DNA of 32,395 nucleotides from an uncultured Parabacteroides sp. (lineage in GTDB: Bacteria > Bacteroidota > Bacteroidia > Bacteroidales > Tannerellaceae), in contig CAMTPG010000001.1 in assembly GCA_947074335.1 (NCBI GenBank), positions 1 to 32,395 of the forward strand, in the 5' to 3' direction. Below the pieces are notes generated by a model. That model made no database searches and was not told where the DNA came from. It was given only the letters and a program-made list of their open reading frames with translations. A program made the translations under genes and the position numbers. Positions 9,965 through 31,881 of this stretch are shown here, in pieces (positions within the stretch are counted from its first letter, which is position 1; each line of letters opens with the position of its first letter).

Positions 9965-12900
9965 ATGAATTCAAGGATTATTAGAACAACGCTTTGTTTA
10001 GGCGCATGTATGATTTTCCCGCTTGGAGAACTACCCTTAGCAATGGCTGCACCAGGCACTACAATGGAAATAGTACAACAAACAAGAAAGATCACAGGTA
10101 CAGTTATCGACGAATTCGGCGATGCAGTTATCGGCGCCAATGTGATTGAAAAAGGAACAACAAACGGAGTAATGACCGACTTAGATGGCGGTTTTTCTCT
10201 CGAAGTACCGCAGGGATCCACAATCGAAGTTTCGTACATCGGTTACCTGACTCAGGAAATCCCTGTTACCAACCAGACAGCACCGCTGCGCATCGTCTTA
10301 AAAGAAGATTCCCAGAGTCTTGACGAAGTAGTAGTAGTGGGTTATGGTGTTCAGAAAAAGAAATTAGTAACCGGAGCAACTGTTCAGGTGAAAGGTGACA
10401 ACATCCAGAAACTCAATACCACAAACGTATTGGGAGCGCTTCAGAGCCAGACTCCGGGTGTAAACATCACAGCCGCTTCAGGACAACCCGGCGAAGGTTA
10501 TAAAATTAACATCCGTGGTGCCGGTACAAACGGCTCAACAACGCCGCTTTATATTATCGACGGTGTACCGGGTGATATTAATGCTTTAAGCCCTGCCGAT
10601 ATTGAGAGCGTAGACGTATTGAAAGATGCTGCTTCGGCTGCCATCTATGGTGCACGTGCTGCCAACGGTGTAATCATCGTGACCACAAAACAGGGTAAAG
10701 CCGGCAAAATCATGGTATCGTTCGACGGTTATATCGGCTGGCAGAATGTGGCTAAGATGCCTGAATTGCTTGATGCAAGACAGTACATGGGTATTATGGA
10801 TCAGTTGAACTTCAATACTGGTGCACAACCTTACAACTGGTTAAACTACATGTCGCAGGAGCAATACAACCGTTATATGAGCGGTGAAGATAAAGGAACA
10901 AACTGGCTGGATGAGATCAGAAATAAAAATGCACTCACTATGAACTATGCATTAAACCTGACAGGTGGTTCTGATTTCTCTAAATTCTCTACCGGTGTTT
11001 CTTATACCAAACAGGATGGTATCCTGGGTAAACCCTGTAACTCTGAATTCCAGCGTTTCACAATCCGTATGAACTCGGAGCATGTATTGTGGCGTAAAAA
11101 TGATCTGGATATCATTACATTCGGAGAAAACTTCTTCTATAATCACAATGAGAGATCTGGTATCTCTACAGGAAACCAGTATAGTAATAACCTCTCGAAC
11201 ATGTTGCGTGCCAATCCGTTGATTCCGGTATACAACGAAAACGGTGATTATTATATGTATGATGATCTGGTAAGAGATGGTTGGTTTAACTACAACTCAT
11301 ACACTTCGAACCCGATTGCCAGCATGGTAAATAAAGATCAGGGTAATAACAAATCGAAAAACTATGGCATGACCATGGTGGGCTGGTTGAAAATTCAGCC
11401 GATTAAAGGTTTGACATACCGCGGTCAGGTAGGTTACAAGCAGAATTCAAGCAGCTACAGAAGCTATAACTATGCTTATAAAATCAATGATTCGGGTGAT
11501 CAGAATACAACTGATAATGTACACCAGAATATGAGTATCGGCTGGAGCTGGTCTGTTGAAAATACAATCAATTACAATTTTGATGTGGCTGAGAAAAACC
11601 ACTTCGATGTATTGGTTGGTCAGACTTTCGAACGCAGCGGTTACGGCATGGGCGAAGAGATCGGTGTTACCGCATCAAACACGCTGTTTGGAAGCTGGGA
11701 TAAAGCTTACATCAGCAACAGCCTTGAATCGCAGCCTACTTCTGCTTACGGCAGACCCTGGGGTGACAACTCGCTGGCTTCTTTCTTTGGTCGTGTTACT
11801 TACGACTATAATGAAAAATACCTGGCCAGTGTGATTATGCGTGCCGACGGTTCTTCAAACTTTGCCCGCGGACATCGCTGGGGTTATTTCCCTTCGGTAG
11901 CAGCAGGTTGGGTAATGAGCAACGAATCGTTCATGGAAAGTACCCAGAGCTGGATGGACTTCCTGAAATTGCGTGCCAGCTGGGGTCGTAACGGTAACTG
12001 TAACATCAACAACTTCCAGTATAGCGCTACCGTAGGTTTCGATGCATTCGGTCAGTATTCGTTTGGCAACAACAAAGATGCAGCAACACAGGGTGGTTAT
12101 GCAAACATTTTGCCGAATAAAGATGTAACCTGGGAAACTTCTGAACAGTTAAACGTAGGTTTGGATGCACGCTTCATCAGCAACCGTTTGAATTTAATGT
12201 TCGACTGGTACAACAAGAAAACTAAAGACTTGTTGATCCAGGCTCCTATTCTTGACTCATACGGTACAAACGCACCTTTCATCAACGGTGGTGATGTAAC
12301 AAACAAAGGGGTTGAAATTGGTTTATCATGGATGGATCAGGTTGGCGAATTCAACTATGGTGCAAGTGTGAACCTGGCTCATAACAAGAATAAAGTAACT
12401 AAGATCAACAATAACGACGGTTATATCTTAGGTGCATCTAATGTGCTTTCTGAAAACACACGTCCCGTTTATCGTATGCAGGAAGGAATGCCGATCGGTT
12501 ATTTCTGGGGATACAAAACAGAAGGTGTAATGCAGAATGATGCCGATGTTCAGGATTATCTGAATAAAAACTGTAACGGCAATGCTTCAAACTCTTTGCA
12601 GGGTAATTCTATCCAGGCAGGTGATCTGAAATTTGTAGATACAAACGGCGACGGTATTATCGATGAAAACGATAAAGTAATGATTGGTAATCCGCATCCG
12701 AAAATGACAATGGGTATCTCGCTGAACTTTACTTATAAAGGTTTAGATTTTGCAGTAACAGGATTCGGTGCTTTCGGTCATCAGAATGTTCGTTCATACC
12801 GCAAATTCACTGACGGTCAGTATGAAAACTACACTACCGAAGTATATGACTACTGGCATGGCGAAGGAACATCTAACAGATTCCCGCGTTTGATCCCGGG

Positions 12901-13198
12901 TAACTCAGGTGTTAACTTCCAGCAGATCTCGGATATCTATGTTGAAAATGCAGACTATTTCCGTCTTCAGAACTTAACAGTAGGTTACAACATTCAGAAC
13001 ATCTGGAAAACATGTCCGCTGAACCAGTTACGTGTTTACTTCACAGCACAAAATTTATTCACTATTACCAAATATAAAGGTATGGACCCGGAAATCGGAT
13101 CTGACGGTGGAACCAGCGATCCTTGGGCATCAGGAATTGACTTAGGTTATTATCCTTCTCCGAGAACTTATATGTTTGGTGTTAATATTAAATTCTAA
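9965..13198 (+). CDS. susC: SusC/RagA TonB-dependent transporter
   Basis: N-terminal extension domain, LDEVVVVGYG, DIESVDVLKDAASAAIYGARAANGVIIVTTK plug motif, RADGSSNF, C-terminal YPSPRTYMFGVNIKF. Confidence 0.98.
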   Translation: MNSRIIRTTLCLGACMIFPLGELPLAMAAPGTTMEIVQQTRKITGTVIDEFGDAVIGANVIEKGTTNGVMTDLDGGFSLEVPQGSTIEVSYIGYLTQEIPVTNQTAPLRIVLKEDSQSLDEVVVVGYGVQKKKLVTGATVQVKGDNIQKLNTTNVLGALQSQTPGVNITAASGQPGEGYKINIRGAGTNGSTTPLYIIDGVPGDINALSPADIESVDVLKDAASAAIYGARAANGVIIVTTKQGKAGKIMVSFDGYIGWQNVAKMPELLDARQYMGIMDQLNFNTGAQPYNWLNYMSQEQYNRYMSGEDKGTNWLDEIRNKNALTMNYALNLTGGSDFSKFSTGVSYTKQDGILGKPCNSEFQRFTIRMNSEHVLWRKNDLDIITFGENFFYNHNERSGISTGNQYSNNLSNMLRANPLIPVYNENGDYYMYDDLVRDGWFNYNSYTSNPIASMVNKDQGNNKSKNYGMTMVGWLKIQPIKGLTYRGQVGYKQNSSSYRSYNYAYKINDSGDQNTTDNVHQNMSIGWSWSVENTINYNFDVAEKNHFDVLVGQTFERSGYGMGEEIGVTASNTLFGSWDKAYISNSLESQPTSAYGRPWGDNSLASFFGRVTYDYNEKYLASVIMRADGSSNFARGHRWGYFPSVAAGWVMSNESFMESTQSWMDFLKLRASWGRNGNCNINNFQYSATVGFDAFGQYSFGNNKDAATQGGYANILPNKDVTWETSEQLNVGLDARFISNRLNLMFDWYNKKTKDLLIQAPILDSYGTNAPFINGGDVTNKGVEIGLSWMDQVGEFNYGASVNLAHNKNKVTKINNNDGYILGASNVLSENTRPVYRMQEGMPIGYFWGYKTEGVMQNDADVQDYLNKNCNGNASNSLQGNSIQAGDLKFVDTNGDGIIDENDKVMIGNPHPKMTMGISLNFTYKGLDFAVTGFGAFGHQNVRSYRKFTDGQYENYTTEVYDYWHGEGTSNRFPRLIPGNSGVNFQQISDIYVENADYFRLQNLTVGYNIQNIWKTCPLNQLRVYFTAQNLFTITKYKGMDPEIGSDGGTSDPWASGIDLGYYPSPRTYMFGVNIKF

Positions 13199-13213
13199 TA
13201 ATAAACAGACATC

Positions 13214-14989
13214 ATGAAAAAGATAATATATGCAGCTTTAGGACTGGCTGCCATTTTCACCTCGTGTGAAAATGCACTCGATACAACAAATTATTTGGAA
13301 AAAACGACGGATACATATCCCGAGACATATGTAGATGCGCAGCAGATGGTTACTGCTATCTATCAGAACCTGAACCTGGTTTGTGCAAATCCGCAAATGT
13401 CGTTCTTCTATATTTCTATGCTGGCCAGTGATGACAACCTCGGTGGCGGCGGTGGAAATGATAAACTCATGCAGGCTTTAGACCTGCTGGGTAACTATCA
13501 GACAGATATGACCCGCGAATTCTGGAAAGCCCGCTATGAAGGTATCTTCCGCGCGAATAACCTGATTGCAACACTGGACAACTGCCAGAACTTCCCTTCA
13601 GTGGAAGCACGCAATCAAATCATGGGTGAAGCGCTCTTTTTGCGCGCATTCTTCTACTATGAATTGTGTTCACAGTATGGCAATGTACCTTTGCTGACAG
13701 CTACTGACCCGGTTGACTATCCGAATGCTTCGGCTGAAGAATTGTGGGGACAGATTCTGTTAGATCTGAAAACAGCTGCTGATCTTATGCCGAACTGGAG
13801 AGCCGGTTCAGCGATCCTGGAAACAGGACACGTAGACAAATATTGTGCACAGGCCATGTTAGGCAGAGCCTGGTTGTTCTACACAGGTATGTATGGTAAC
13901 GGTTCTGAATTATCGCAACTGGTAAGCGAAAGCTACAGTCCGCTTACTTCGGTAACTTTACCCGACGGTTCAACTCTGACAAAACAGGAAGTAATCGGTT
14001 ATATCGATGATTGTGTAAACAACTCAGGATATTCACTGGTTCCGGATTATCGTAACCTGTGGGCTTATACAAACCGTCTTACTGTTGATGATTATGAATA
14101 TACAGCAGGTCAGGGTCTGAAATGGGTTGAAAATGACAATGCAATCAATCCGGAAGCCATGTTTATGATTAAATTCAACAAACTGGCAGACTGGCAGACA
14201 ACAATTGGTTATGCTAACAGTTATGCACTGCACTTCGGTATGCGTGGTGGCCAGGCTTACGAAAACACATTCCCGTTTGGTCAGGGATGGGGTGCCGGTC
14301 CGGTAGCTCCGAACCTGGTAAACGACTGGACTGTGGCAGAACCTAATGATGCACGTCGTGAAGCTTCTGTATGTAATGTAAACGAACTGCCTGCTTATAC
14401 CAGAGGTGGTTGGGCCGATTTCGTTCAGGAAACAGATTATTATGGTAAAAAACTTTCTCCGATTTCTTGTAAAACTACAGAAACAGAGTCAGGCTATTAC
14501 AGTTGTTTCGAAAATGCAATGTATGGTACTTCTAACTGGATTCAGGGTTCTGACAATATGCAGCTGAACAACATTCACGACTTGGTACTGATTCGTTTCG
14601 CCGATGTATTGTTGATGCAGTCTGAGTTGAAAGAAGATGCAACAGGTATGAATCAGGTTCGTTCACGTGCCGGTTTGCCCGCAACCTCTTACTCACTCGA
14701 AAACATCCAGAGAGAACGTCGTTGGGAACTTGCTTTCGAAGGTGTACGCTGGAATGATATCCGTCGCTGGCACATCGCTGCAAAAGCACTCGAGAAACAA
14801 ACGAATGTAAATGTCTACTATTGCGGTGCTCCCGGTACAAACCAGTCACACATCGGCGGTTATGCAGCCCGTTACAACGCAACAGCAGGTTTCTTCAAAA
14901 TTCCTGAAAGTCAGATTTCTCTTTCTACTGCTCTGCAGCAAAACCCGGGTTGGGGTTCTGATGCCGAATACAACGGATGGGGAATGTAA
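13214..14989 (+). CDS. susD: SusD/RagB glycan-binding lipoprotein
   Basis: Lipobox FTSC; GEALFLRAFFY, IRFADVLLM, ERRWELAFEGVRWNDIRRW, QNPGW motifs. Confidence 0.97.
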   Translation: MKKIIYAALGLAAIFTSCENALDTTNYLEKTTDTYPETYVDAQQMVTAIYQNLNLVCANPQMSFFYISMLASDDNLGGGGGNDKLMQALDLLGNYQTDMTREFWKARYEGIFRANNLIATLDNCQNFPSVEARNQIMGEALFLRAFFYYELCSQYGNVPLLTATDPVDYPNASAEELWGQILLDLKTAADLMPNWRAGSAILETGHVDKYCAQAMLGRAWLFYTGMYGNGSELSQLVSESYSPLTSVTLPDGSTLTKQEVIGYIDDCVNNSGYSLVPDYRNLWAYTNRLTVDDYEYTAGQGLKWVENDNAINPEAMFMIKFNKLADWQTTIGYANSYALHFGMRGGQAYENTFPFGQGWGAGPVAPNLVNDWTVAEPNDARREASVCNVNELPAYTRGGWADFVQETDYYGKKLSPISCKTTETESGYYSCFENAMYGTSNWIQGSDNMQLNNIHDLVLIRFADVLLMQSELKEDATGMNQVRSRAGLPATSYSLENIQRERRWELAFEGVRWNDIRRWHIAAKALEKQTNVNVYYCGAPGTNQSHIGGYAARYNATAGFFKIPESQISLSTALQQNPGWGSDAEYNGWGM

Positions 14990-15015
14990 TAACCTTTTAA
15001 TTGGATTAAATAATC

Positions 15016-15846
15016 ATGAAAAAGAATATATATTTAGCATTAGCACTGGCTTCTGGTTTATTGATGTCTTGTACTAGCACAGATGACGGCCCAAAGCCTT
15101 CAACTGATTTAACAGCCGAAAAATTACAAAACATTGTTTCAGTAAACCAGACTGTAGCCAATCAGAATAAATTTACCTTTTCTACCAATCCTGCATTGAC
15201 AGTACAGATTCTGGATCAGGATGGCAGCATCTTAGCAACCGGTACAAGCGGCGAAATTATCGGAGTTCCTCCTTTAACACAGCTTACCGTGCGCGGCATG
15301 AATCAGGACGGTTCTATCGTTTCTTATTCGAACGACGTAACAATCACAGATTATGTGGATGTACCCGAAATTTATAAATATCTGTTTGGTGATTCTTATT
15401 CATCACAAACATGGACATGGGATACTGAAGCATCTGACGGTGTTTGGGGTAACGGCGGTTACTTAAGCAACAGCGGTCCGGGCTGGTGGGTTGTTCAGGC
15501 AGCCGACATCGACGAACAATGCGAAGGCAAAGGCTTACCGCATGACGGGTTGAACGGTTGGATGACTTTCACACTCGCCGGTAAAAAAGTAGATACCAGC
15601 CGCGGCGAATCAGGAAGTCTTTCATGGGATCAGTCTTCGATCGCAAAAGAGGGTTGGGATTTAGGTAAACTGATCTTCAGTGGTACTGTTCCTTTGATGG
15701 GTATTCAGGTAAATGAGGATAACAGACGCGAATACAACTATCACATTCTGTTGATGGATGGCGAACACCTCCGTTTATGTGCTCCCGAAACAGGTTCAGG
15801 CGAAGGCGGAACAGCCTGGTTCTACAACTTCAAAGTAAAGAATTAA
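15016..15846 (+). CDS. Putative surface glycan-binding lipoprotein (SusE-positioned)
   Basis: Lipobox LMSC followed by acidic TSTDD; directly after susD; Trp-rich C-terminal domain (WTWD, WGNGGY, PGWW, AWFY). Confidence 0.7.
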   Translation: MKKNIYLALALASGLLMSCTSTDDGPKPSTDLTAEKLQNIVSVNQTVANQNKFTFSTNPALTVQILDQDGSILATGTSGEIIGVPPLTQLTVRGMNQDGSIVSYSNDVTITDYVDVPEIYKYLFGDSYSSQTWTWDTEASDGVWGNGGYLSNSGPGWWVVQAADIDEQCEGKGLPHDGLNGWMTFTLAGKKVDTSRGESGSLSWDQSSIAKEGWDLGKLIFSGTVPLMGIQVNEDNRREYNYHILLMDGEHLRLCAPETGSGEGGTAWFYNFKVKN

Positions 15847-18580: not shown

Positions 18581-19189
18581 ATGTTTCCCGTTAAACCGCT
18601 GTTTTTAATTATACTCCTGTTTATTACAGCCTCAGCCTGCCAGACCGACAAACCGGTTTATACCATTCAGGGCACACTGCCTTCGTCCGAATATGACGGC
18701 GAATGGATCTATCTGGCTCCGCTTGTTAATGCAACCACCGAAACGATCGATTCGGTAAAAATAGAAAACAGTCAGTTCACCTTCGAAGGCATGAACGAAG
18801 AGATGCGCGTAATCCGTATGCGCATGATGCTTCGCCATAAATTTCAGGAACTGCTGGTGGTTACCGAACCGGGACTTACCACGGTCATCATCGATTCGGT
18901 CAGCTCGGCTTCCGGTACGCCTCAGAATGAGGCACTTCAACTGTGGAAAGAGGAAAAAGCCGGCTACGACAGCTACAGTTATCAGCACTTTCAAAAGCTG
19001 AAAACGGCCACACCGGCCGACTCGGCATTCCTGTCAGCCGGATTAGAAGCGATAAAAAACGATTTCCAACTCTTCAATTTTAACTTCATGAACGAGAATT
19101 GGAATAATACGGCAGGGCGATTTCTCTATCCGTTAATTAAACCCACCTTAAGTGTGGAGCAACAAGAGGCACTGCATGAGCTTGATTAA
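18581..19189 (+). CDS. DUF4369-like lipoprotein without a thioredoxin domain
   Basis: Lipobox ASAC; YTIQG..DGEWIYL...IDSVKIENSQFTFEG...EPG...GTPQNE pattern; no CxxC. Confidence 0.75.
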   Translation: MFPVKPLFLIILLFITASACQTDKPVYTIQGTLPSSEYDGEWIYLAPLVNATTETIDSVKIENSQFTFEGMNEEMRVIRMRMMLRHKFQELLVVTEPGLTTVIIDSVSSASGTPQNEALQLWKEEKAGYDSYSYQHFQKLKTATPADSAFLSAGLEAIKNDFQLFNFNFMNENWNNTAGRFLYPLIKPTLSVEQQEALHELD

Positions 19190-20711
19190 ACGCAACCTGT
19201 CGGGCATTTGTTTAGCGGCGGCCACACTGGCCTGTTTTCTGTTTTTCTTTTTCCGCTATCCAAATCATCTGTTCCACAAAGAACAGATGCTGCTCTTCAT
19301 GTATGCACCGGCATTTCTGGAAACTTATCTGCAGAAACCGGCCGGAATCTCGCTGCTGATCGGCGATTTCCTGACTCAGTTTTATTATTTCAGAGCCGGC
19401 GGCCCGCTAATCCTCTCGGTCTTACTTATGCTGACCGGATTAGCAAGCTACCGCATACTCCGCAAATGGCTGCCGCCAATGATCGCCCTGATCGCCATTC
19501 CGGTAATCATGTGTTGGGAAGCCGGTCGTAATTGTATTTTAATCTATCCACTGGCATCGACCGTGTCGCTACTTGTCGGCATGAGTCTGTTTCTGCTCTG
19601 GCAAAAAATCCGGGTTCGCACACTCCGCCTGGTACTCAGTGCGCTCTTTCTGGCAATAGCCTGGTTCGGGTTTGGCTATGCCGCTTGGGTTTGTCTGCTG
19701 CTGATGATCATTCACGAACTGTACAAAAAAGAATGGGCAGGAGCCGCACTGCTATGCATGGCATTTTTCATCTTGCCTGCACAATCCATTCCGGCTACTA
19801 CCTTTTGGGGCAGGCCCAGTTTCGATCGCGAACATATATTCGCTCTCGACAAAGCGCTGCTCGACAATGATAAAACAGCGCTCAATGCACTGCTTGAAAC
19901 CGATTATCAGATGAACTGGAACAGCTTCTTTCATAACCTGCATCGGGCAACCGAAAACCGGCTACCCGACGAGCTGATGCAATTTTATCAGCCGGCATCG
20001 CAGGCGCTGATCCTGTCCGTAGGGCCCGAATCATCCTATCTATCGATACTCTTTGCCAACGAATTCTGGTTCAGAGCCGGCGATATGACCATGGCCGAAC
20101 ACTGCGCCATGCTGAGTATGATCTTTTCGCCCGATCATGCGGGCACACGTAATCTCAGGCGACTGGCCGAGATCAACCTCATCAACGATGATTCTGCGGC
20201 TGCTTTGAAATACCTGCGTATGCTGGACAAAACAGCCTTTCATAAAAACTGGGCCCGCCGGCAAATGGCGCTGCTGGAACAACAGGAGTCGGATCCGGCA
20301 CAGATGCAGATTCGCAAACGCATACCCGATTCCGATTATCTGCGTAAATCGGGCGATGTTACCGGTTCACTGCGTCATCTCTTGCAATGCAATCCCGATA
20401 ATCCGATCGCTTATCAGTATCTGCTGAGTTATGCCCTGCTGAATAAAGATTTGACTAATTTCTTTGCCGATTACCGCCCCGATTATATGCCCGGACGTGT
20501 TTTTGCCGAAGCGGCACTGATTGTGCTGGCGCAGCAACAACAGCTTACACCCGAAAATCTGCGGAAATATCAGATTCCGCCCTATCTGGTGCAACAGTTT
20601 ATGCAATATAACGAAATGTACAATCGTGATCCCGAAGATATTGAAGCGCTGCAGGCTGACTTCTGCAACAGTTACTGGATTTATTATCATTTTGCCGTTT
20701 TGCCGTCATGA
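19176..20711 (+). CDS. DUF6057-like polytopic membrane protein with TPR-like C-terminus (copy 1); ATG 19176 preferred over GTG 19152
   Basis: EQ..LF, GIS..I.DFLTQFYY, RRLAE.NLIN, KYLR.L, C-terminal YW.YY; several hydrophobic helices in the first ~210 aa; paralog of 22171-23940. Confidence 0.75.
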   Translation: MSLIKRNLSGICLAAATLACFLFFFFRYPNHLFHKEQMLLFMYAPAFLETYLQKPAGISLLIGDFLTQFYYFRAGGPLILSVLLMLTGLASYRILRKWLPPMIALIAIPVIMCWEAGRNCILIYPLASTVSLLVGMSLFLLWQKIRVRTLRLVLSALFLAIAWFGFGYAAWVCLLLMIIHELYKKEWAGAALLCMAFFILPAQSIPATTFWGRPSFDREHIFALDKALLDNDKTALNALLETDYQMNWNSFFHNLHRATENRLPDELMQFYQPASQALILSVGPESSYLSILFANEFWFRAGDMTMAEHCAMLSMIFSPDHAGTRNLRRLAEINLINDDSAAALKYLRMLDKTAFHKNWARRQMALLEQQESDPAQMQIRKRIPDSDYLRKSGDVTGSLRHLLQCNPDNPIAYQYLLSYALLNKDLTNFFADYRPDYMPGRVFAEAALIVLAQQQQLTPENLRKYQIPPYLVQQFMQYNEMYNRDPEDIEALQADFCNSYWIYYHFAVLPS

Positions 20712-22162
20712 GAAAGATCCTGCTATATCCTGTCATTACAGCATTTCTGGTGTTGTGCAGCTGCCGGCCCGAACCGGCTATCCGCATCGATATGCAGCAA
20801 CCGGCGCCGATCTATCCCGATTATACCGATATTGCCATTCCCTGCAACATTGCTCCGCTTAATTTCGGCGTACGCGAGCATGTCTCGGAAGTACAGGTTT
20901 TACTGCAGGGTGAAACAACCCATCTGCAGGCATCGGGTAAAAATAAAATACAGTTTTCGCTGAAGAGCTGGAAAAAATTTATGCAGCAGGAAACGGGCAA
21001 CCGTGTTGCCGTGCATTTCTCCATGCAGCAGGGCGACTCGTTGCTGAACTATCCGCCCTTCTACTGGCAGATCATGCCCGATTCTATAGACAGTTACCTG
21101 AGTTACCGGCTTATCGAACCCGGTTTTGAGGTGTGGAATCATCTGCAGCTGGAAGAGCGCAACCTGGAGAATTTCGAAACGCGCCTCATTGCCGACAACA
21201 GCGAGCTGGATCGCTCCTGCATGAACTGCCACATCTATGGCAACAACGACGGATCGCTTTCGCTCTTTCATATCCGTGGCAAACAGGGCGGAACCGTGCT
21301 GAACCGGAATGGCGAGTTGCGAAAACTGCAGCTGCGCAATGAGGAGTTTCCCGCGGGAGCCGTGTATGGCAGTATTCACCCTTCCGGTCGTTATGCCGCC
21401 TTTTCGGGTAATCATATTATACCCGAATTTCATGCGCATCAAAACAAACGACTGGAAGTTTATGATGAATACAGTTATTTACTTATTGCCGAATTTGATG
21501 AGAACCGGCTGGCATCAATCCCGGCGCTGACCGACAAAAGTAAACAATATACCTTTCCGGCCTTTTCGGCCGACGGCACGCAGCTCTATTTCTGCATGGC
21601 GCCGGCACTGGAGCTGCCCGAAAATATAGATTCGCTCTTTTATTCGATTGCACGTATCAATTTTGATGCTGCAACCGGCATGCCGCAGGGCGAAATCGAA
21701 ATCATCTGGCAGGGCAGTCGCGAAACCGGCTCGGCTTCGCACCCCGGATTATCACCGGATGGAAAATATTTACTATTTTGCGTGGCCGGCTACGGCACCT
21801 TCCCAATCTGGCACCGCGAAACCGATTTGTATCTGATGCACCTTGCTGACGGAGAAGTTGAGTTGCCGGCGGCGGTAAATTCGGATCGTTCGGATACCTA
21901 TCACAGCTGGTCGTCGAACAGTCGCTGGTTTGTATTTGCCAGCAAGCGCGACGACGGATTATATGGTAAACCCTACTTTGCCTACATTGACAGCACAGGC
22001 AAAACGTACAAACCGTTTGTTTTGCCTCAAAAAGATCCGGAGTGGTATGATCTTACCCTAAAATCATACAATATTCCGGAACTGGCCGGTTCTGCGCTTC
22101 CGTTCGATCGCAGGAAACTGGAAAAAGTATATCATCAAACTCAGTCTGAAACATTTAAGTAG
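20708..22162 (+). CDS. TolB/PD40-like beta-propeller lipoprotein with CxxCH motif (copy 1)
   Basis: Lipobox LCSC; CMNCH (21218-21232); PD40-like repeats HPSGRYAAF, PAFSADG, SPDGKYLLF, WSSNSRWFVF; ATGA overlap with the upstream gene. Confidence 0.8.
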   Translation: MRKILLYPVITAFLVLCSCRPEPAIRIDMQQPAPIYPDYTDIAIPCNIAPLNFGVREHVSEVQVLLQGETTHLQASGKNKIQFSLKSWKKFMQQETGNRVAVHFSMQQGDSLLNYPPFYWQIMPDSIDSYLSYRLIEPGFEVWNHLQLEERNLENFETRLIADNSELDRSCMNCHIYGNNDGSLSLFHIRGKQGGTVLNRNGELRKLQLRNEEFPAGAVYGSIHPSGRYAAFSGNHIIPEFHAHQNKRLEVYDEYSYLLIAEFDENRLASIPALTDKSKQYTFPAFSADGTQLYFCMAPALELPENIDSLFYSIARINFDAATGMPQGEIEIIWQGSRETGSASHPGLSPDGKYLLFCVAGYGTFPIWHRETDLYLMHLADGEVELPAAVNSDRSDTYHSWSSNSRWFVFASKRDDGLYGKPYFAYIDSTGKTYKPFVLPQKDPEWYDLTLKSYNIPELAGSALPFDRRKLEKVYHQTQSETFK

Positions 22163-22170
22163 TACTATAT

Positions 22171-23940
22171 ATGAAACATTCGAATGTTTATTCATCCGTA
22201 AACCGGATAGCTCCGATACTCTTTGCACTGGCCGCTCTGTTGTGGTGGGGTCTTGCCAATAAATACCTGTTGTATTATCAGGAACAGTTCCAGCTGTTTC
22301 AGTTTACGTTCGATTATCTGAAATCGCGCTGCCTTGTTCCCGGCGGCATAAGTTTCTATATCGCTGATTTTCTGACTCAGTTCTATTATTATCCCTGGAT
22401 CGGCGCGGCGATTATTGCACTGCTGCTCGTAATTATCCGGCAACTGGTATTCCGACTGGGGCGCCTGCTAAAGGCAGATGCAACCTACGGATTACTCTCG
22501 TTTTTGCCTTCGATTGCCTTCTGGGCCTTTTTGTGCGACGAAAATGCATTGTCGGGATTGCTGATTGGTACGATTTTCTCACTGGCTGCCTGTTGCATTT
22601 ATATGCGCTTTCCTGGAAATTTAACCAATCGGGTGATTTGCATTCTGGTTTCGTTGCCTGTATTATATGTAGTGGCAGGCAGTGTCTATTTTTTGTTCAT
22701 TGCCTGGGCTGTGATTTATGAATTTCGTGAAGCGATGCGTCGCAAAGAAGTAGCTCACGCCCTGCTCCGTCTGGGATTGCTGGTGCTGGCCGGTATTTTG
22801 ATTCCGTTACTGGCACAGTTGGTTACGCAATATGCTTTTGCCGGATTACTCAGTGGCATCGGTTATTACCGGTTTCCGCAACTTTATACCTTTACCGGGC
22901 TGGCAGCAGTTGCGCTCTGTGTGGCAACTCCCTGGCTGATGCGCGGATTCAGTCTGCTGAAATCGCCCGAAAAAAGAGGATTCATCCTCACCCTGACAGC
23001 CGTGGCAGGCATCGGCTTTGTCTGGATTTACAAGGCTGCCGATCCGATGAAAGAGGAGATCATGAGATACGATTACCTGACTAAAACAGGACAATGGAAT
23101 GCCGTTATCGCAGAGGCGGAGAAAAAATCGCCGACATCGCCATTAAGTGTAGCCTGTCTGAATCTGGCACTGGCCAAAAATAATCAGCTGGGTGACCGGA
23201 TGTTCGAGTTTTATCAGAATGGTCCCGAAGGGTTGATCCCGTCGTTCAAACGCGATTTCTATGCACCGCTGGTGAGTAATGAAATCTATTATCAGCTGGG
23301 CATGATCAATACGGCACAACGCTTTACGTTCGAGGCGATGGAGGCCATTCCCGATTACCGCAAAAGTAGTCGTGCCTTCCGGCGACTGGCCGAAACAAAC
23401 CTCATCAACGGACAATATAAAGTAGCCGAAAAATACCTCCGCGCCCTGCAACATACCCTGTTTCATAAAAAATGGGCCGATACGATGCTGAAATATGCCG
23501 GCAACGAGTCGGCCATAGCCGGTAATCCCGAAATGGCGCGCCTGCGCAAATCGCGTTACATCAACGATTTTCTGTATAGTGATACCGAAATGGAGGATAT
23601 GCTGGGATTGCTGCTGGCACAAAATCCGGAGAACAGGCTGGCTTTTGAATATTTACTGGGATACACATTACAAAATAAGGATCTGGAGCGGTTTATGACT
23701 TATTATCCGCTGGGACGCACCATGAATTACACGCATATCCCGAAATCATATCAGGAGGCATTGATCTATATGTGGACGCAACAAAATCCGAATTTTAACG
23801 GATTGCCCTGGAGTATCTCGCGCAATGTGCTGGATGGTGTATCCGAGTTTGCACATATCTATATGAAACAAAAGCAACCCGAAGCGATCCTGAAAGAAAA
23901 GTATGGTAAAACATACTGGTATTATTTATTATTTGTTTAA
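22171..23940 (+). CDS. DUF6057-like polytopic membrane protein with TPR-like C-terminus (copy 2)
   Basis: YQEQFQLF, PGGISFYIADFLTQFYY, RRLAETNLINGQYKVAEKYLRAL, YGKTYWYYL; multiple TM helices in the first ~290 aa. Confidence 0.8.
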   Translation: MKHSNVYSSVNRIAPILFALAALLWWGLANKYLLYYQEQFQLFQFTFDYLKSRCLVPGGISFYIADFLTQFYYYPWIGAAIIALLLVIIRQLVFRLGRLLKADATYGLLSFLPSIAFWAFLCDENALSGLLIGTIFSLAACCIYMRFPGNLTNRVICILVSLPVLYVVAGSVYFLFIAWAVIYEFREAMRRKEVAHALLRLGLLVLAGILIPLLAQLVTQYAFAGLLSGIGYYRFPQLYTFTGLAAVALCVATPWLMRGFSLLKSPEKRGFILTLTAVAGIGFVWIYKAADPMKEEIMRYDYLTKTGQWNAVIAEAEKKSPTSPLSVACLNLALAKNNQLGDRMFEFYQNGPEGLIPSFKRDFYAPLVSNEIYYQLGMINTAQRFTFEAMEAIPDYRKSSRAFRRLAETNLINGQYKVAEKYLRALQHTLFHKKWADTMLKYAGNESAIAGNPEMARLRKSRYINDFLYSDTEMEDMLGLLLAQNPENRLAFEYLLGYTLQNKDLERFMTYYPLGRTMNYTHIPKSYQEALIYMWTQQNPNFNGLPWSISRNVLDGVSEFAHIYMKQKQPEAILKEKYGKTYWYYLLFV

Positions 23941-23951
23941 TTCTGACCCGC

Positions 23952-25427
23952 ATGAAGACATCAATTATACAAACGCTTGCCTGCTGCCTGCTGCTGCTTA
24001 GCGCCTGTAGCGAACAGATTAATTCGCCTGAAGAAATCGCCGCTTATCCGCCGATCTATCCCGATTATATCGGTGTTACGATTCCGCGCAACATAGCGCC
24101 GCTGAATTTTAATATGGAAACGGACGACTGCGAGCGAATGGATATCCGCATTTTCGCAAACAACAGGGAATTGTATCACCAACAGGGAAAAATCATGGAT
24201 ATCCCGGTGAAACAATGGCAAAAAATATTGGAAGAGGCCAATCATTGCGACAGCCTGATGATTACCGTTCAGGCAAAAGAAGATGGTAAATGGAAAAATT
24301 ATCGCTCTTTTCCGGTCTATTTAAGTAATTATCCGGTAGATTATGGTTTGGTTTACCGCAAAATTGCGCCGGGTTACGAAGTATATAGTAAAATGGGAAT
24401 TTATCAGCGTGATCTTTCTTCCTTCGAAGAAACCGCACTGGTGGAAAATACGCTGGTGAAAGGTATGTGTGTAAATTGTCACACATTTAATCAGACCAAC
24501 CCCGAACAATTCAGTCTGCACATACGCGGAGATCACGGAGCTACTTATCTGAAAAGAGGTACCGATACCGAATATCTCAATACGAAGACAGATCAGACAC
24601 TGGCATCGTGCGTTTATCCCTATTGGCATCCGGATGGCAGTTATATTGCCTATTCAACCAACAATACCCGTCAGTCGTTTCATGTAAACAGTGAAGAGCG
24701 CATCGAGGTTATTGATCTGGCTTCCGATATTGTGGTGTATCATCCCGAATCACACCGGCTCTTACATTGTGATCTGCTTGAAGGAGATGAATACTTTGAA
24801 ACATATCCCGCTTTTTCGCCCGACGGTAAGACACTTTATTTCTGTCAGGCTTCGGTACAAGAGATACCGGCCGGCTATAAAGAGATCCGGTATAATTTAT
24901 GCAGCATTGCATTCGAACCCGATGCGGGAACCTTTGGTAATAAGATCGATACGCTTATTTTAGCCGATACATTATCGAAAAGTATTACTTTTCCCCGTCC
25001 TTCGTACGACGGGAAATATATTTTGTTCACAATGGCCGATTACGGGAACTTCCCAATTTGGCATAAAGAGGCCGATCTGGGTTTGCTGGATTTAACCACA
25101 AATCAATTTAGAATGCTATCAGAAGTGAATAGCAATGATACCGAAAGTTTCCACAATTGGACAAAAAATTCGCGTTGGTTTGTATTTAGCAGTCGCCGGG
25201 ATGATGGCCTGTACACCCGATTGTATCTGGCTTCCGTAGATGATGATGGTCAGGTAAGCAAACCCTTTATGCTTCCGCAGCGCGATCCGAAAACCTTTTA
25301 TGACAGAGATATTTACTCGTATAATGTGCCCGATTTCACAGACAGACCCATTGATTTTGAGCGTCGGATTTTTGAAAAAAAGATTGTTTCGGACGAAAGA
25401 ATTCAGGTAAAATCAGCAAAAAAATGA
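23952..25427 (+). CDS. TolB/PD40-like beta-propeller lipoprotein with CxxCH motif (copy 2)
   Basis: Lipobox LSAC; CVNCH (24468-24482); WHPDGSYIAY, PAFSPDGKTLYF, SYDGKYILF, NSRWFVFSSRRDDGLY. Confidence 0.8.
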   Translation: MKTSIIQTLACCLLLLSACSEQINSPEEIAAYPPIYPDYIGVTIPRNIAPLNFNMETDDCERMDIRIFANNRELYHQQGKIMDIPVKQWQKILEEANHCDSLMITVQAKEDGKWKNYRSFPVYLSNYPVDYGLVYRKIAPGYEVYSKMGIYQRDLSSFEETALVENTLVKGMCVNCHTFNQTNPEQFSLHIRGDHGATYLKRGTDTEYLNTKTDQTLASCVYPYWHPDGSYIAYSTNNTRQSFHVNSEERIEVIDLASDIVVYHPESHRLLHCDLLEGDEYFETYPAFSPDGKTLYFCQASVQEIPAGYKEIRYNLCSIAFEPDAGTFGNKIDTLILADTLSKSITFPRPSYDGKYILFTMADYGNFPIWHKEADLGLLDLTTNQFRMLSEVNSNDTESFHNWTKNSRWFVFSSRRDDGLYTRLYLASVDDDGQVSKPFMLPQRDPKTFYDRDIYSYNVPDFTDRPIDFERRIFEKKIVSDERIQVKSAKK

Positions 25428-25500: not shown

Positions 25501-26616
25501 ATGAAAAACGTAACACTGTTAACACTGCTCAGTGCAGGCTTACTCACAGCTTGTAATCCTGCCAAAAATAATGAGGCGACAAATAAGGATAGTCGTTCTT
25601 CGAAAGAAATTCTGCGCGACAATTTGCGCGCTACTACTCCTAAAGGCGTAATGTTCGGTCATCACGATGACACCGTTTACGGCAAAGACTGGGAATTTGT
25701 GGAAGATGGTTCGGATGTACTGGCCGTTTGCGGCGATTATCCGGCAGTAGTCAGTTTTGATCTGGGACACCTAGAGTTGGGTGATTCTTTAAGTATTGAC
25801 AAGGTGCCTTTTGATCTGATCAGACAGGAGGCTGTTAAACAATATCAACGCGGCGGATTGGTTTCGTTCAGCTGGCATCCGCGTAATCCGAAAACCGGAG
25901 GCGACTCATGGGATGTAAGTGATAAAACCGTGGTTACCTCGATTCTGCCCGGCGGAGAAAACTATGAGAAATTCCAGCAATGGCTGAATAATCTGAACCG
26001 GTTTATCTGCTCTTTGCAAACTGAAGACGGCACAAAAGTACCCGTACTGCTCCGCCCCTGGCACGAACATACAGGCAGTTGGTTCTGGTGGGGACAGGAT
26101 CTGTGTACTACCGACGAATACAAACAACTCTGGCGCATGACTACCGATTATCTGGAACAAAACGGTGCAGCCGATCAGATTTTATATGCCTACTCTACCG
26201 GTACCGAACCGAAAGATACAGCTGCTTATCTGGAGCGTTACCCCGGAGATGACATCATCGAAGTAATCGGTTTCGACGGTTATCAGCGCGAAGACAAAAA
26301 TTTATACCTGAATGATATGGCCGTATGCCTGGCTGTTGTGGATTCGATCGCTAAAGCACATGACAAAATTCTGGCTATCACAGAAACCGGATACGAAGCA
26401 ATACCCGATTCAGTATGGTGGACAGAAACCCTGCTGCCTTTAATGGGAGATTATCCCGTATCGTATGTTTTGTTGTGGCGTAATGCCCGCGAATATGATA
26501 CCCATTTCTTCGGACCATATCCGGGACATGCATCAGCAAATGATTTTATTAAATTTCATCAGCATCCTAAAACTTTATTTTCAAAAGACGTAAACCTGTA
26601 CGAAAACAATAAATAA
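25501..26616 (+). CDS. Beta-mannanase, GH26 (lipoprotein; similar to B. fragilis ManA type)
   Basis: FGHHDD, SWH..NP, RPWHE (acid/base), WFWWG, YPGDD, GFD.Y, AITETG (nucleophile), WRN; lipobox LTAC. Confidence 0.95.
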   Translation: MKNVTLLTLLSAGLLTACNPAKNNEATNKDSRSSKEILRDNLRATTPKGVMFGHHDDTVYGKDWEFVEDGSDVLAVCGDYPAVVSFDLGHLELGDSLSIDKVPFDLIRQEAVKQYQRGGLVSFSWHPRNPKTGGDSWDVSDKTVVTSILPGGENYEKFQQWLNNLNRFICSLQTEDGTKVPVLLRPWHEHTGSWFWWGQDLCTTDEYKQLWRMTTDYLEQNGAADQILYAYSTGTEPKDTAAYLERYPGDDIIEVIGFDGYQREDKNLYLNDMAVCLAVVDSIAKAHDKILAITETGYEAIPDSVWWTETLLPLMGDYPVSYVLLWRNAREYDTHFFGPYPGHASANDFIKFHQHPKTLFSKDVNLYENNK

Positions 26617-26651
26617 AATAAATAATTAACAGATATATTTAGTGATACATT

Positions 26652-27836
26652 ATGGAACAGTTTAATGATAAAGTCGCAGCCCTTTTCGAAAATTACGAAG
26701 CACTGATTACACGCAAAAATACACCGGTAGAAAAAACAAATGGTGTTTATACACGCTATGAATACCCGATTTTAACAGCCGATCACACGCCTGTATTCTG
26801 GCGTTATGATCTGAGTGAAGCACGTAACCCCTTTCTGATGGAGCGCATTGGCATGAATGCAACCATGAATTCGGGTGCAATCAAATGGAATGGTAAATAT
26901 CTTTTGATGGTCCGTGTGGAAGGTGACGATCGTAAATCATTCTTTGCCGTGGCTGAAAGTCCGAACGGCATCGATAACTTCCGCTTTTGGGACTATCCCG
27001 TAACCATGCCGGATGATCTGATTCCTGCTACCAATATCTATGATATGCGCCTGACTGCACACGAAGACGGCTGGATTTACGGAATCTTCTGTGCCGAACG
27101 TAAAGATCCCAATGCGGCACCCGGCGATTTATCATCGGCTACGGCAACAGCAGGCATCGCCCGTACAAAAGATTTGAAAACATGGGAGCGTCTACCTGAT
27201 CTGAAAACTGCCAGCCAGCAGCGCAATGTCGTGTTGCATCCTGAATTTGTAGATGGCAAATATGCCTTGTATACCCGTCCGCAGGATGGATTTATTGATG
27301 CCGGCAATGGTGGCGGTATCGGCTGGGCATTGATCGATGATATCACCAATGCCGAGGTAAAAGAGGAAAGCATTATCGATTCACGTAATTATCATACTAT
27401 AAAAGAGGTAAAGAATGGCGAAGGACCACATCCGATTAAAACCGATAAAGGCTGGTTACATCTGGCTCACGGTGTGCGCGGCTGTGCTGCAGGGCTTCGC
27501 TATGTACTTTATCTGTACATGACATCATTAGAGGATCCTACACGCCCTATTGCCACTCCCGGTGGTTACTTCATGGCTCCCGAAGGTGAAGAACGTATCG
27601 GCGACGTATCGAACGTGCTCTTTACTAACGGCTGGATTGCCGATGAAGACGGAACAGTTTATATCTATTATGCATCATCAGATACACGTATGCATGTGGC
27701 AGTTTCATCAATCGATAAACTGACTGATTACTGTTTCAATACACCGCAGGATGGTCTGACTACTTCTGCTTCGGTAGAAACTTTGAAACGTTTAATTGAT
27801 AATAACAAACCATTTATCCCTGCAGATAAAGCATAA
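26652..27836 (+). CDS. mgp: 4-O-beta-D-mannosyl-D-glucose phosphorylase, GH130
   Basis: [71 protein letters not shown]; no signal peptide. Confidence 0.95.
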
Positions 27837-27850
27837 ATGAGGATACTATT

Positions 27851-29239
27851 ATGATTAAATTTTCCGAGAAGATAGGATACGGTTTCGGGGACATGGCATC
27901 GTCCATGTTCTGGAAACTGTTCGGAGCCTATCTGATGATATTCTATACCGATGTATTCGGTCTGCCTGCGGCAGCCGTAGGTACCATGTTTCTGGTTACC
28001 CGCATCTGGGATTCTCTTTTCGATCCGATTGTCGGGGTTGTAGCAGACAGAACAAATACACGTTGGGGTAAATTCCGTCCCTATATTCTTTGGCTTTGTG
28101 TTCCGTTTGGAGCAATCGGGATCATGACTTTTTTCACTCCTTCATTCGGTACAACGGGTAATTTGATCTATGCTTATATTACCTATTCGCTGATGATGAT
28201 GATTTATTCGGCTATTAATGTGCCGTATGCTTCCTTACTGGGTGTAATCAGTCCGCTGCCGGATGATCGAAATACATTATCAACCTATCGTATGGTATTT
28301 GCCTATATCGGCAGTTTTGTGGCATTGCTGCTTTTTATGCCCATGATTAATCTTTTCAGCGGAAATGATAAGGCTATGGAAGCACAACAGCATGGCTGGT
28401 TCTGTGCCGTGGGAGTCATTGCCATTATGTGTATCCTCTTGTTCTACGGATGTTTTGCCTTGACCCGCGAACGTGTTAAACCGCTGAAAGAACAGCAAAA
28501 TGCACTTAAAGATGATATTAAAGATCTGTTCCACAACGGTCCCTGGTGGATTTTATTGGGCGCCGGCATATCAGCATTGATTTTTAATTCGATACGTGAT
28601 GGGGCTACGGTTTATTATTTTAAATATTATATAGACGAAGATCAATTCAGGGATATCTCATTATTGGGAATTCCATTTGTATTAAGCGGCCTGTATCTGG
28701 CTGTAGGTCAGATTGCCAATATTATCGGTGTGATCCTTGCCGCTCCGCTAAGTAACAGCATCGGCAAAAAGAAAACGTATATGTCGGCCATGGTTGTAGC
28801 AACAGTATTAAGTATTATTTTTTATTGGTTCGACAAAACAAACTTAACTATTATATTTATATTTCAAGTGCTGATCAGCATATGTGCCGGCAGTATCTTC
28901 CCCCTTTTATGGTCTATGTATGCCGATTGTACGGATTATTCGGAGCTGAAAACCGGCAACCGGGCTACAGGATTAATATTTAGCTCATCCTCTATGAGTC
29001 AGAAATTCGGATGGGCTATCGGTACTGCCATAACAGGCTGGTTACTGGGTTACTTCGGATTCCAGGCCAATATGGTGCAAAGTACCGAAACGATTAACGG
29101 TATTAAAATGTTCTTGAGCTTTTTACCGGCAGTCGGTACCATTTTATCCGTAATCTTCATCAGCGCTTATCCGCTGACAGAAAAACGGATGAAAGAGATA
29201 ACTTTAGAATTGCAACACAAAAGAGATGAAAAACTATGA
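27851..29239 (+). CDS. GPH-family (MFS) sugar:cation symporter, probably mannobiose importer
   Basis: EKIGYGFGD, FYTDV, RIWD..FDP, DRT.TRWGKFRPY, NVPY motifs; about 12 TM helices; position between mgp and the epimerase. Confidence 0.93.
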   Translation: MIKFSEKIGYGFGDMASSMFWKLFGAYLMIFYTDVFGLPAAAVGTMFLVTRIWDSLFDPIVGVVADRTNTRWGKFRPYILWLCVPFGAIGIMTFFTPSFGTTGNLIYAYITYSLMMMIYSAINVPYASLLGVISPLPDDRNTLSTYRMVFAYIGSFVALLLFMPMINLFSGNDKAMEAQQHGWFCAVGVIAIMCILLFYGCFALTRERVKPLKEQQNALKDDIKDLFHNGPWWILLGAGISALIFNSIRDGATVYYFKYYIDEDQFRDISLLGIPFVLSGLYLAVGQIANIIGVILAAPLSNSIGKKKTYMSAMVVATVLSIIFYWFDKTNLTIIFIFQVLISICAGSIFPLLWSMYADCTDYSELKTGNRATGLIFSSSSMSQKFGWAIGTAITGWLLGYFGFQANMVQSTETINGIKMFLSFLPAVGTILSVIFISAYPLTEKRMKEITLELQHKRDEKL

Positions 29240-30426
29240 ACGACATTTTAAAACTCAAAGATGAAGTCCGGCTGGAACTCGAAAATAATATCCTGAGTTT
29301 CTGGATCGAAAAAATGACGGACATTGAACATGGTGGTTTTTACGGCCGGATCGACGGCGATGACCAGCTGCATGAACAGGCACCCAAAGGTGCCATTCTG
29401 CATGCCCGCATCTTATGGACATTCTCGGCAGCATTTCGCTTACTGAAAAAGCCGGCTTACCTGAAGACTGCAAAACGTGCAAAAGAATATCTGATCGAAA
29501 AATTCTATGATCAGGAAAACGGTGGTATCTATTGGGAAGTGGATTATCTGGGTAATCCTACACAAACGAAAAAACAGATCTACGCGCTCGGATTCGCCAT
29601 TTACGGATTAAGCGAGTACCATCGGGCTACTGGAGATCAGGAAGCACTGGATTATGCCGTTAAATTATTTGAAACGATCGAAGAACACAGCTTCGATCTG
29701 GAGTTTAACGGATATATGGAGGCCTTCACCCGAAATTGGGAACTCATCGAAGATATGCGACTGAGCGATAAAGACGAAAACGAAAAGAAAACCATGAATA
29801 CGCATTTGCATATTCTGGAACCCTATACAAATCTGTACCGGGTATGGAAAGATGACCGGTTAAAGAAAAAGCTGGAAAATCTGATCGAATTATTTATCGG
29901 TCCGATTCTGGATAAGAACACCGGACATCTGCTTTTATTCTTCGACGAACACTGGAATGCCAAATCAACAGCATTCTCGTTTGGTCATGATATTGAAGCC
30001 TCCTGGCTGATTCATGAAGCAGCACTGGTGTTGGGCGATGAAGCATTACTGGCTCGTGTCAATAAACAGATTTATCGGATTGCCGATGCCGCAAGCGAAG
30101 GATTAATGGAAAACGGCGGATTGATTTATGAATATTTCCCCGAAACAAGAGAGACAGATGCCGAATTCCACTGGTGGGTGCAGGCCGAAAATGTAGTAGG
30201 CAATGTAAACTTATACCAGCATTTTAATGACCAGGTGGCTCTTGAGAGAGCCGTGAAAGGCTGGGAATTTATCAAGCAGCATTTGATTGATCATCGCCAT
30301 GGCGAATGGTTCTGGGGCAGTTATCTGGATCATACAACTAACCGGCAGGATGATAAAGCCGGCTTCTGGAAATGTCCTTATCACAATGGCCGTATGTGCA
30401 TGGAAATTATAGAACGTTATTCCTGA
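29236..30426 (+). CDS. Cellobiose/mannobiose 2-epimerase (AGE family)
   Basis: ARILWTFS, KTMNTHLHILE, SFGHDIE.SWL, WWVQAE, WKCPYHNGR motifs; ATGA overlap with the symporter. Confidence 0.95.
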   Translation: MNDILKLKDEVRLELENNILSFWIEKMTDIEHGGFYGRIDGDDQLHEQAPKGAILHARILWTFSAAFRLLKKPAYLKTAKRAKEYLIEKFYDQENGGIYWEVDYLGNPTQTKKQIYALGFAIYGLSEYHRATGDQEALDYAVKLFETIEEHSFDLEFNGYMEAFTRNWELIEDMRLSDKDENEKKTMNTHLHILEPYTNLYRVWKDDRLKKKLENLIELFIGPILDKNTGHLLLFFDEHWNAKSTAFSFGHDIEASWLIHEAALVLGDEALLARVNKQIYRIADAASEGLMENGGLIYEYFPETRETDAEFHWWVQAENVVGNVNLYQHFNDQVALERAVKGWEFIKQHLIDHRHGEWFWGSYLDHTTNRQDDKAGFWKCPYHNGRMCMEIIERYS

Positions 30427-30441
30427 TTTCTATAGATTAAA

Positions 30442-31881
30442 ATGAAAAAGTTATTTACATATTCGTTTATTATAGGTTTGTGTGTATTGAGGGCATTGCC
30501 CTCAATCGCACAGTTAAAATTACCGCCTCTGATGAGTGACGGCATGGTGCTGCAACAAAATTCGGATGTACGGATTTGGGGAGAAGGTATGCCTGACAGT
30601 GAGGTTACTTTAACAACAAGCTGGACAAAGGATGTTTATTCAGCGAGAGTAAACCCCGAAGGAGACTGGGAAATCCGGATTTCTACACCGGATGCCGGTT
30701 TTGAACCGCAACAAATAAGTATCGTAAATCTCAACGATCAGCAAATTATAGAAAACATATTAATCGGTGAAGTGTGGTTTTGTTCGGGTCAATCCAATAT
30801 GGAAATGCCTTTAAGAGGATTTCATAACTGCCCGATCGAAGGAGCCAACCGGACAATTGCCACATCAGGACAATATGCCGAGCGGCTTCGCTATGCTACA
30901 ATTGGCAAAGCTGCTCCTTTGACGCCTGCTAAAACAACGACAGGTGGCGAATGGAAAACAAGCAATCCGATGCATGCAGCCGAGTTTGGCGCAACAGCTT
31001 ACCATTTCGGTACTTTATTAAGCGATGTATTAAATGTACCCGTGGGAATTATCAATTGCAGCTGGGGCGGATCGAGAGTAGAAGGCTGGTTACCCAAAGA
31101 AACTGTGGATTTATTTGATGATATAGATTATTCAATGATCGTTAATGACGATTTAGCCAACCCTTGGCTAAAACCAATGATTATGTATAATGGATTGTTT
31201 AAGCCCGCCAGCAGATATACCGTAAAAGGTATACTCTGGTATCAGGGCGAATCGAATGTAGGCAAACCTGATTATGCAGAACGGCTGGCCATGATGGCAG
31301 CACAATGGCGATCTGATTTCGAAGATGATGATTTGCCTTTTTATCAGGTCGAAATAGCACCTTATGCATATAGTAACAACAGAAATGAAACAGACGGTGC
31401 TTTGCTGCGTGAACAACAATATAAAGCTTCACAGATCATTCCCAACAGCGGAATAATCTCAACGAATGATTTGGTTGAGCCGTATGAGGTAAATCAAATT
31501 CATCCGAAAGATAAGAAAAATGTGGGTGAGCGTTTAGCGTATCTCGTATTGAATGATACTTATGATTATTCCACAATAGCCTGTAAAGGCCCGGAATTTG
31601 ATTCAATGGAGAGTCGCGACGATCAGCTTATTCTTCATTTCAAAAATGCAACAAACGGTTATAACCGTTTTGATGGCATAACCGGGTTTGAAATAGCCGG
31701 TGAGGATCTGATTTTTAAACCGGCTGATGCAAGAATAGACGGACAAGCCATGACAGTCATTGTCAGTTCACCTGAAGTTACGGCTCCGAAGGCTGCCCGG
31801 TATTGTTTCAGAAATTTTCAAATTGGCAATTTAACAAATATAGAGGGATTACCCGTAATCCCGTTTCGCACAGACAACTAA
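30442..31881 (+). CDS. SASA/sialate O-acetylesterase-family SGNH esterase, probably a mannan deacetylase
   Basis: MVLQQ, GEVWFCSGQSNM, WGGS.VE.W, WYQGESN, IHP.DK, PFRTD motifs; signal peptide. Confidence 0.88.
   Translation: MKKLFTYSFIIGLCVLRALPSIAQLKLPPLMSDGMVLQQNSDVRIWGEGMPDSEVTLTTSWTKDVYSARVNPEGDWEIRISTPDAGFEPQQISIVNLNDQQIIENILIGEVWFCSGQSNMEMPLRGFHNCPIEGANRTIATSGQYAERLRYATIGKAAPLTPAKTTTGGEWKTSNPMHAAEFGATAYHFGTLLSDVLNVPVGIINCSWGGSRVEGWLPKETVDLFDDIDYSMIVNDDLANPWLKPMIMYNGLFKPASRYTVKGILWYQGESNVGKPDYAERLAMMAAQWRSDFEDDDLPFYQVEIAPYAYSNNRNETDGALLREQQYKASQIIPNSGIISTNDLVEPYEVNQIHPKDKKNVGERLAYLVLNDTYDYSTIACKGPEFDSMESRDDQLILHFKNATNGYNRFDGITGFEIAGEDLIFKPADARIDGQAMTVIVSSPEVTAPKAARYCFRNFQIGNLTNIEGLPVIPFRTDN

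Follow-up and report, generated by a model that had tools for sequence, protein, structure and literature searches.

The stretch of DNA analysed here (the window: 32,395 nucleotides (nt), positions 1 to 32,395 of the forward strand of contig CAMTPG010000001.1, assembly GCA_947074335.1, from an uncultured Parabacteroides sp.) carries five intact open reading frames (ORFs), all in the same direction and in the order X-A1-B1-A2-B2, in which A is a DUF6057 membrane protein and B a predicted lipoprotein with a CxxCH motif (Table 1). X and A1 overlap by 14 nt, A1 and B1 share an ATGA overlap, and gaps of 8 nt and 11 nt separate B1 from A2 and A2 from B2, so that the ORF coordinates bear out the arrangement given in a preliminary description made from the sequence alone; the nine motifs quoted there for A and B are all found in both copies. 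An in-frame GTG lies at 19152, 5' of the ATG start of A1. A1 and A2 are 25% identical and B1 and B2 34%, and on sequence grounds both sets are old paralogues. Family matches also confirm the mannan-pathway flanks, with SusC, SusD and a glycoside hydrolase (GH) of family GH36 upstream and GH26, GH130, a GPH symporter, a cellobiose-epimerase-like protein and a SASA esterase downstream. Promoter and terminator scans of the region gave no signal above chance; TAnnTTTG, which we take to be the promoter consensus, matches once before X (18525) and once before GH26 (25479), with 28 matches expected by chance.

Table 1. Features of the X-A1-B1-A2-B2 genes and their flanks (window coordinates; aa, amino acids)
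Feature	Position	Strand	Description
SusC, SusD, 276-aa unannotated gene	9965-15846	+	SusC/SusD importer by family matches; 5' of X-A-B
X	18581-19189	+	202-aa predicted lipoprotein (Cys20); Pfam DUF4369, E 2e-13
A1	19176 (ATG)-20711	+	Short-form DUF6057, 511 aa, membrane domain and TPR; PF19529, E 1e-119
A1 Glu36	19281-19283	+	Aligned equivalent of A2 Glu38; first periplasmic helix
B1	20708-22162	+	484-aa predicted lipoprotein (Cys19); small N-terminal beta domain and TolB-like propeller, CMNCH; PD40 match
B1 CxxCH codons (C171-H175, CMNCH)	21218-21232	+	Motif scan
A2	22171-23940	+	DUF6057, 589 aa; PF19529, E 5e-183
A2 Glu38	22282-22284	+	Near position of GT-C acidic motif, helix after TM1
B2	23952-25427	+	491-aa predicted lipoprotein (Cys19); TolB-like propeller, CVNCH, conserved His/Arg/Tyr set
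B2 CxxCH codons (C173-H177, CVNCH)	24468-24482	+	Motif scan
GH26, GH130, symporter, epimerase, esterase	25501-31881	+	Mannan pathway; variable neighbour, not core part

The suggestion that A and B form an obligate module is strongly supported by directly observed gene linkage, co-occurrence and fusion. In an even draw of 151 Bacteroidales genomes the two were found in exactly the same 17, the remaining 134 being without the pair, and when the source genome is set aside, the other 16 have 42 A loci, of which 40 lie next to a B gene (B is directly downstream at 37, the order is B-A at two, and one pair is divergent; the count excludes a fragment at a contig end and a 281-aa match to the membrane part only). 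Natural A-B fusion proteins also occur (P0004, P0013 and P0075, the P0013 cluster having 35 members). In the source genome five DUF6057 genes score above the cut-off, every one with B behind it and two of them cut by contig ends; besides the two pairs in the window, three A-B pairs lie on other contigs. A was present in all 18 same-genus genomes sampled and in none of 12 sampled from other families, and DUF6057 is rare phylum-wide (6 of 301 genomes above the cut-off; matches to PF19529 below it, in 21 genomes of this survey and on contig C250 of the source genome, were left uncounted). The pair is nevertheless multi-copy in gut, rumen and sediment Bacteroidales, forming 836 clusters at 50% identity (E up to 1e-30). 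At the family cut-off no pair was found in the model organism B. thetaiotaomicron, and this could explain why the pair has been overlooked so far. In Prevotella-type loci (L038, L047, L067, L072, L076 and L085) two to three A-B pairs form convergent arrays, and a membrane-anchored TPR protein of 550-800 aa lies near A-B at eight divergent-clade loci (L203, L208, L213, L218, L219, L237, L271 and L284).

That A is DUF6057-like is clear from its scores (401 bits for A1 and 610 for A2, against a Pfam gathering cut-off of 29.8). Folds and topology are predictions, and the AlphaFold 2 (AF2) models agree with the helical, TPR-like C terminus of A and the beta-propeller of B that had been proposed. 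In A2, residues 1-297 are predicted to form a GT-C-fold membrane domain with about nine transmembrane (TM) helices, followed from about residue 300 to 589 by a TPR-like region; A1 lacks about 70 residues of the later TM region, seen as a gap in its alignment with A2. The predicted N-terminal membrane module has the GT-C plan of TM1, outer-loop helices and a following TM bundle, and among the top 50 structure matches each one that spans the whole membrane domain is a GT-C enzyme. The hhalign comparison of A with PMT_2 gave 78.5% (E 1.7e-5) over 219 collinear columns, as against 0.1% for the MFS and CcsA controls and 89% for the PMT_2/TMEM260 positive control. A has no sequence-level match to any GT-C Pfam or PDB entry, a sequence search of the PDB returned nothing useful, and Foldseek gave no match at E <=0.001 and TPR proteins only; an A homologue in the ESM Atlas likewise matched TPR clusters only (scores 0.80-0.81), a lead at best. 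Stand-alone 281-aa proteins that match only the membrane part of DUF6057, with neither TPR nor adjacent B, were also seen (G437:C79:105709, G006:C1:5685320 and G008:C31:52590).

The predicted fold lends support to lipid-linked glycan transfer, one of the roles first suggested, and A might then be an active GT-C glycosyltransferase that moves a sugar from a polyprenyl-phosphate donor to B, to lipoproteins of the polysaccharide utilization locus (PUL) or to an imported oligosaccharide; B would be the subunit that binds the acceptor. In TMTC/TMEM260 O-mannosyltransferases an extracytoplasmic TPR domain comes after the GT-C membrane part, and the layout of A is alike, the TMTC likeness being one of architecture. 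Glu38, present in both window copies, is invariant in 30 of 30 same-genus A proteins and aligns beside the PMT_2 DE motif in hhalign, and the second outer loop has a recurrent D-x-N-Y motif in the same-genus alignment. The GT-C enzyme DPY19 depends on a single essential acidic residue (PMC10154233). Among 37 members drawn from across the order and phylum, however, just 22 keep Glu38, 4 have it one position away and 11 lack it, and their alignment has no invariant column, whereas the TMEM260-like (DUF2723) proteins of Bacteroidota keep D31, E34, E139 and E141 invariant. These latter proteins occur in 40 of the 41 genomes sampled from the phylum (none was found in the source genome, which is 76% complete) and are the better candidate for a general protein O-glycosylation transferase; A shares no profile similarity with them and is patchy, multi-copy and located in glycan loci. 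In our survey of 80 B-centred loci from named genomes, many of them on short contigs, a donor synthase or flippase is not a regular neighbour (GT2 at 3/80). Relative to the GT-C enzymes compared (Pmt1/2/4, STT3/PglB/AglB, AftA/AftD, ALG3 and bacterial PMT_2/ArnT-like proteins), A lacks a universally kept acidic residue and regular donor-synthesis neighbours, and has an obligate CxxCH propeller partner. Active transfer would also leave the CxxCH motif, and the link to a chorismatase-like gene described below, unexplained. We consider it unlikely; A appears to have a GT-C fold in which the transferase site is partly eroded.

In the AF2 model of B the CxxCH motif, which has the CxNCH form reported earlier in both window copies, lies in the propeller strand 172-180. 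It is present in 138 of 142 representatives, with C173, C176 and H177 (B2 numbering) each 97% conserved, and a signal peptide ending at Cys19 in B1 and B2 would place it outside the cytoplasm, as in c-type cytochromes. Both copies match PD40 and neither matches the HZS_alpha, peroxidase or Cytochrom_C families of Pfam; the canonical helical cytochrome c fold is not seen around the motif. The source genome carries cytochrome c maturation genes of System II (ResB-like and CcsA) on contig C199, beside nrfHA-like multihaem genes, and PF01578 occurs in 17/17 A+B genomes, such maturation genes being also common in genomes without the pair. The CxxCH of B is a likely haem site. At three loci with tandem pairs the first-copy B has lost CxxCH together with portions of two blades, and only the second copy is intact (L014:31-1323, L015:3267-4571 and L016:152-1474), and these paralogues are possible pseudo-enzyme subunits.

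A sequence search of the PDB with B found only TolB, at E 0.63. We rejected B as a TolB, which it matches at 24.7 bits against a TIGR02800 cut-off of 343 and 12-14% identity: B is a lipoprotein with CxxCH, and its neighbourhoods hold no tol-pal genes (tolQRA or pal). A looser analogy would make the pair a non-catalytic periplasmic scaffold or sugar shuttle between SusC and the inner membrane, working like TolB with a TPR partner and using CxxCH as a disulfide or zinc site. This seems quite improbable, because B has a dense set of conserved polar residues (His, Arg, Tyr and Asp at 90-99% in the 142 representatives) of a kind usually found in active sites. SusC/D systems are a general trait of Bacteroidales, yet 134 of the 151 genomes do without the pair, and a scaffold would not explain co-inheritance with a cytoplasmic enzyme.

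That enzyme, which we call R (about 375 aa), is the commonest non-Sus neighbour of A-B, being found at 19 of the 80 B loci and abutting A or B at 18, in records of Prevotella, Bacteroides, Tannerella, Dysgonomonas, Proteiniphilum and Prolixibacteraceae; it is also present at 4/4 loci from outside the class. It occurs in 15 of the 17 A+B genomes and 6 of the 134 others (Fisher p 4e-14, overstated by kinship). The window is without R, and the source genome has two copies elsewhere. The R profile matches the Hyg5-type structure 5AG3 (E 1e-34) and FkbO 4BPS (E 2e-25), and C347 and E354, invariant in 14/14 sequences, align in 5AG3 with the Hyg5-type Cys and the catalytic Glu (Glu334 of Hyg5; PMC7170507). 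By sequence, R is a relative of the Hyg5/FkbO chorismatases, with an activity that is predicted only; it keeps the Cys and Glu equivalents of Hyg5/FkbO/XanB2 but scores 22-150 bits, below the TIGR04444 cut-off of 325, and lies in cytochrome and glycan loci rather than polyketide clusters. In three of the Prevotella-type arrays (L038, L047 and L072), genes for R, a carbamoyltransferase and an aldehyde dehydrogenase come after the A-B pairs.

Of 19 regions fetched around R copies away from A-B, 14 hold CxxCH cytochrome genes and five do not; five have a DHOR di-haem protein, a porin and a CxxCH lipoprotein, and nine have a di-haem protein of the CCP_MauG type, accompanied in most cases by an HZS_alpha protein and in several by CcsBA. 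R thus marks c-type cytochrome loci, which is the best indirect evidence for haem on B, and the haem- or metal-dependent enzyme among the roles first suggested gains support from this cytochrome-linked neighbour, though still by inference. In about 200 A/B loci there are only nine other CxxCH ORFs. HZS alpha combines a six-bladed propeller with sites for haem c (PMC12758564). The HZS-like propeller cytochromes of Bacteroidales (HZS_alpha and CCP_MauG loci) resemble B in combining a propeller with c-type haem motifs and in having R as a neighbour, but the single CxxCH of B lies inside the propeller, B has no HZS_alpha or peroxidase domain, and these loci have no counterpart of A. The source genome itself encodes an HZS_alpha-domain protein (G000:C10:1255-3573; L348), with a further A-B pair lying some 10 kb away, and a cluster of di-haem protein, R, lipoprotein, HZS_alpha/FGE protein and CcsBA (G000:C117; L164); other Bacteroidales have clusters of this type too, in many cases together with Dak1/Dak2 and a DeoC-type aldolase. 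The DHOR clusters (L146, L148, L155, L161 and L163: DHOR di-haem protein, porin O/P, mono-haem lipoprotein and R, then LuxR genes or CcsBA) look like iron-uptake-type loci, in which a chorismatase-like gene is unexplained.

The tie between R and many cytochrome loci would also suit a role for A as a dedicated maturation chaperone for its own B, of the CcmI/NrfG kind, keeping apo-B at the membrane while CcsBA attaches haem to an unusual beta-strand CxxCH, with B the sole functional protein and X and R as maturation aids. The strict 1:1 co-duplication of A and B, the predicted periplasmic TPR domain of A and the non-canonical structural context modelled for the CxxCH are in keeping with it, as is the fusion of full-length DUF4369 proteins, relatives of X, to a thioredoxin domain. 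Stable A-B fusions, however, fit a permanent subunit better, A was not found beside DHOR or HZS-like cytochrome loci, and none of 30 A members matches the TPR_CcmH_CycH family of Pfam, even with E as high as 1, nor did the neighbourhood survey find ccm genes beside A-B. CcmI and NrfG are not known to have a large membrane domain of the GT-C-like kind, which also counts against a chaperone, and we regard this explanation as rather unlikely.

As to what the module acts on, SusC or SusD lies within 10 kb at 42 of the 80 B loci, and the enzymes nearby are diverse (GH9/31/2, GH10/5/3, GH92, GH28/106, GH18, GH95/78 and GH88). The link to mannan drawn in the preliminary description holds for the window's subclade only: there the tandem pair often precedes GH26 (G001, G012, L050, L102 and L257) and in G376 has a GH26 gene on either side. 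That the pair is a component of the GH26/GH130 pathway dedicated to mannan is very improbable and at the family level largely refuted, with GH26 at 3/80 B loci, 10 of the 17 A+B genomes without GH26, three further pairs elsewhere in the source genome, and three same-genus genomes with the tandem pair in which no GH26 was seen (two are 86-89% complete). No enrichment beside GH26/GH130 was found, nor any restriction to such loci; GH26 occurs in 7/17 A+B genomes and 25/134 others, so that 25 of 32 GH26 genomes are without A+B. Across Bacteroidales, A-B is found beside importer genes of diverse kinds. The more constant unit consists of a SusC clade, a small gene, X and tandem A-B; the window-type SusC/SusD importer belongs to it, because a SusC 47-64% identical to the window's precedes A-B at 16 of the 80 loci. 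X is an optional partner, with homologues at 17 of the 80, and has no thioredoxin domain, while a full-length DUF4369+AhpC/TSA paralogue is encoded on contig C59 of the same genome. The 276-aa gene 3' of SusD (15016-15846) has no Pfam or NCBIfam match, is kept in the SusC-SusD-X-A-B unit and is probably a surface lipoprotein.

The reading that we tentatively favour, while giving it somewhat less than an even chance, is that A-B is a 1:1 inner-membrane-anchored periplasmic haem-c enzyme module acting on the SusC/D-imported sugars of many glycans, with A presenting a partner and R as a supplier. B would carry covalent haem on its CxxCH at the propeller mouth, beside the conserved His177, His190, His401, Arg192, Arg416 and Tyr222, and would hold the substrate pocket. 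The periplasmic TPR domain of A would bind B, and its GT-C lipid groove would present a polyprenyl-linked partner, either a quinone or a lipid-linked sugar. R would supply hydroxybenzoate, or a maturation step, common to other Bacteroidales c-type cytochrome loci, and the substrates would be sugars imported by the neighbouring SusC/D. In this scheme we infer A-B binding, haem attachment, lipid binding, substrate and chemistry alike. A more ambitious statement, that a three-part Bacteroidales system of repurposed GT-C protein, haem-c propeller lipoprotein and chorismatase-like enzyme couples periplasmic haem redox on imported glycans to an inner-membrane polyprenyl carrier, is possible but doubtful.

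While each of the parts comes, by sequence, from a known superfamily, we know of no described system that combines them. The term 'DUF6057' is absent from about 8.4 million full texts, and we found no literature on the A-B pair, which closed-access papers or supplements might give under locus tags; the main text and one supplement of PMC11784079 do not mention these genes. Expression rows for 'cytochrome c family protein' in X. ruminicola KHP1 (PMC11107044, supplement 2) were not linkable to B sequences and were left unused.

The standard model of a PUL comprises binding, import, hydrolysis and regulation, and has neither a haem enzyme nor a GT-C protein. Either main outcome would be new, whether a new family of bacterial GT-C proteins or a haem-dependent step in fibre use, and the fold assignment and the R gene together make a domain of unknown function directly testable. 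If the more ambitious three-part scheme is true, PULs would gain an oxidative or lipid-linked step that lies outside current models, and the GT-C fold would have been put to use beyond glycosyl transfer.

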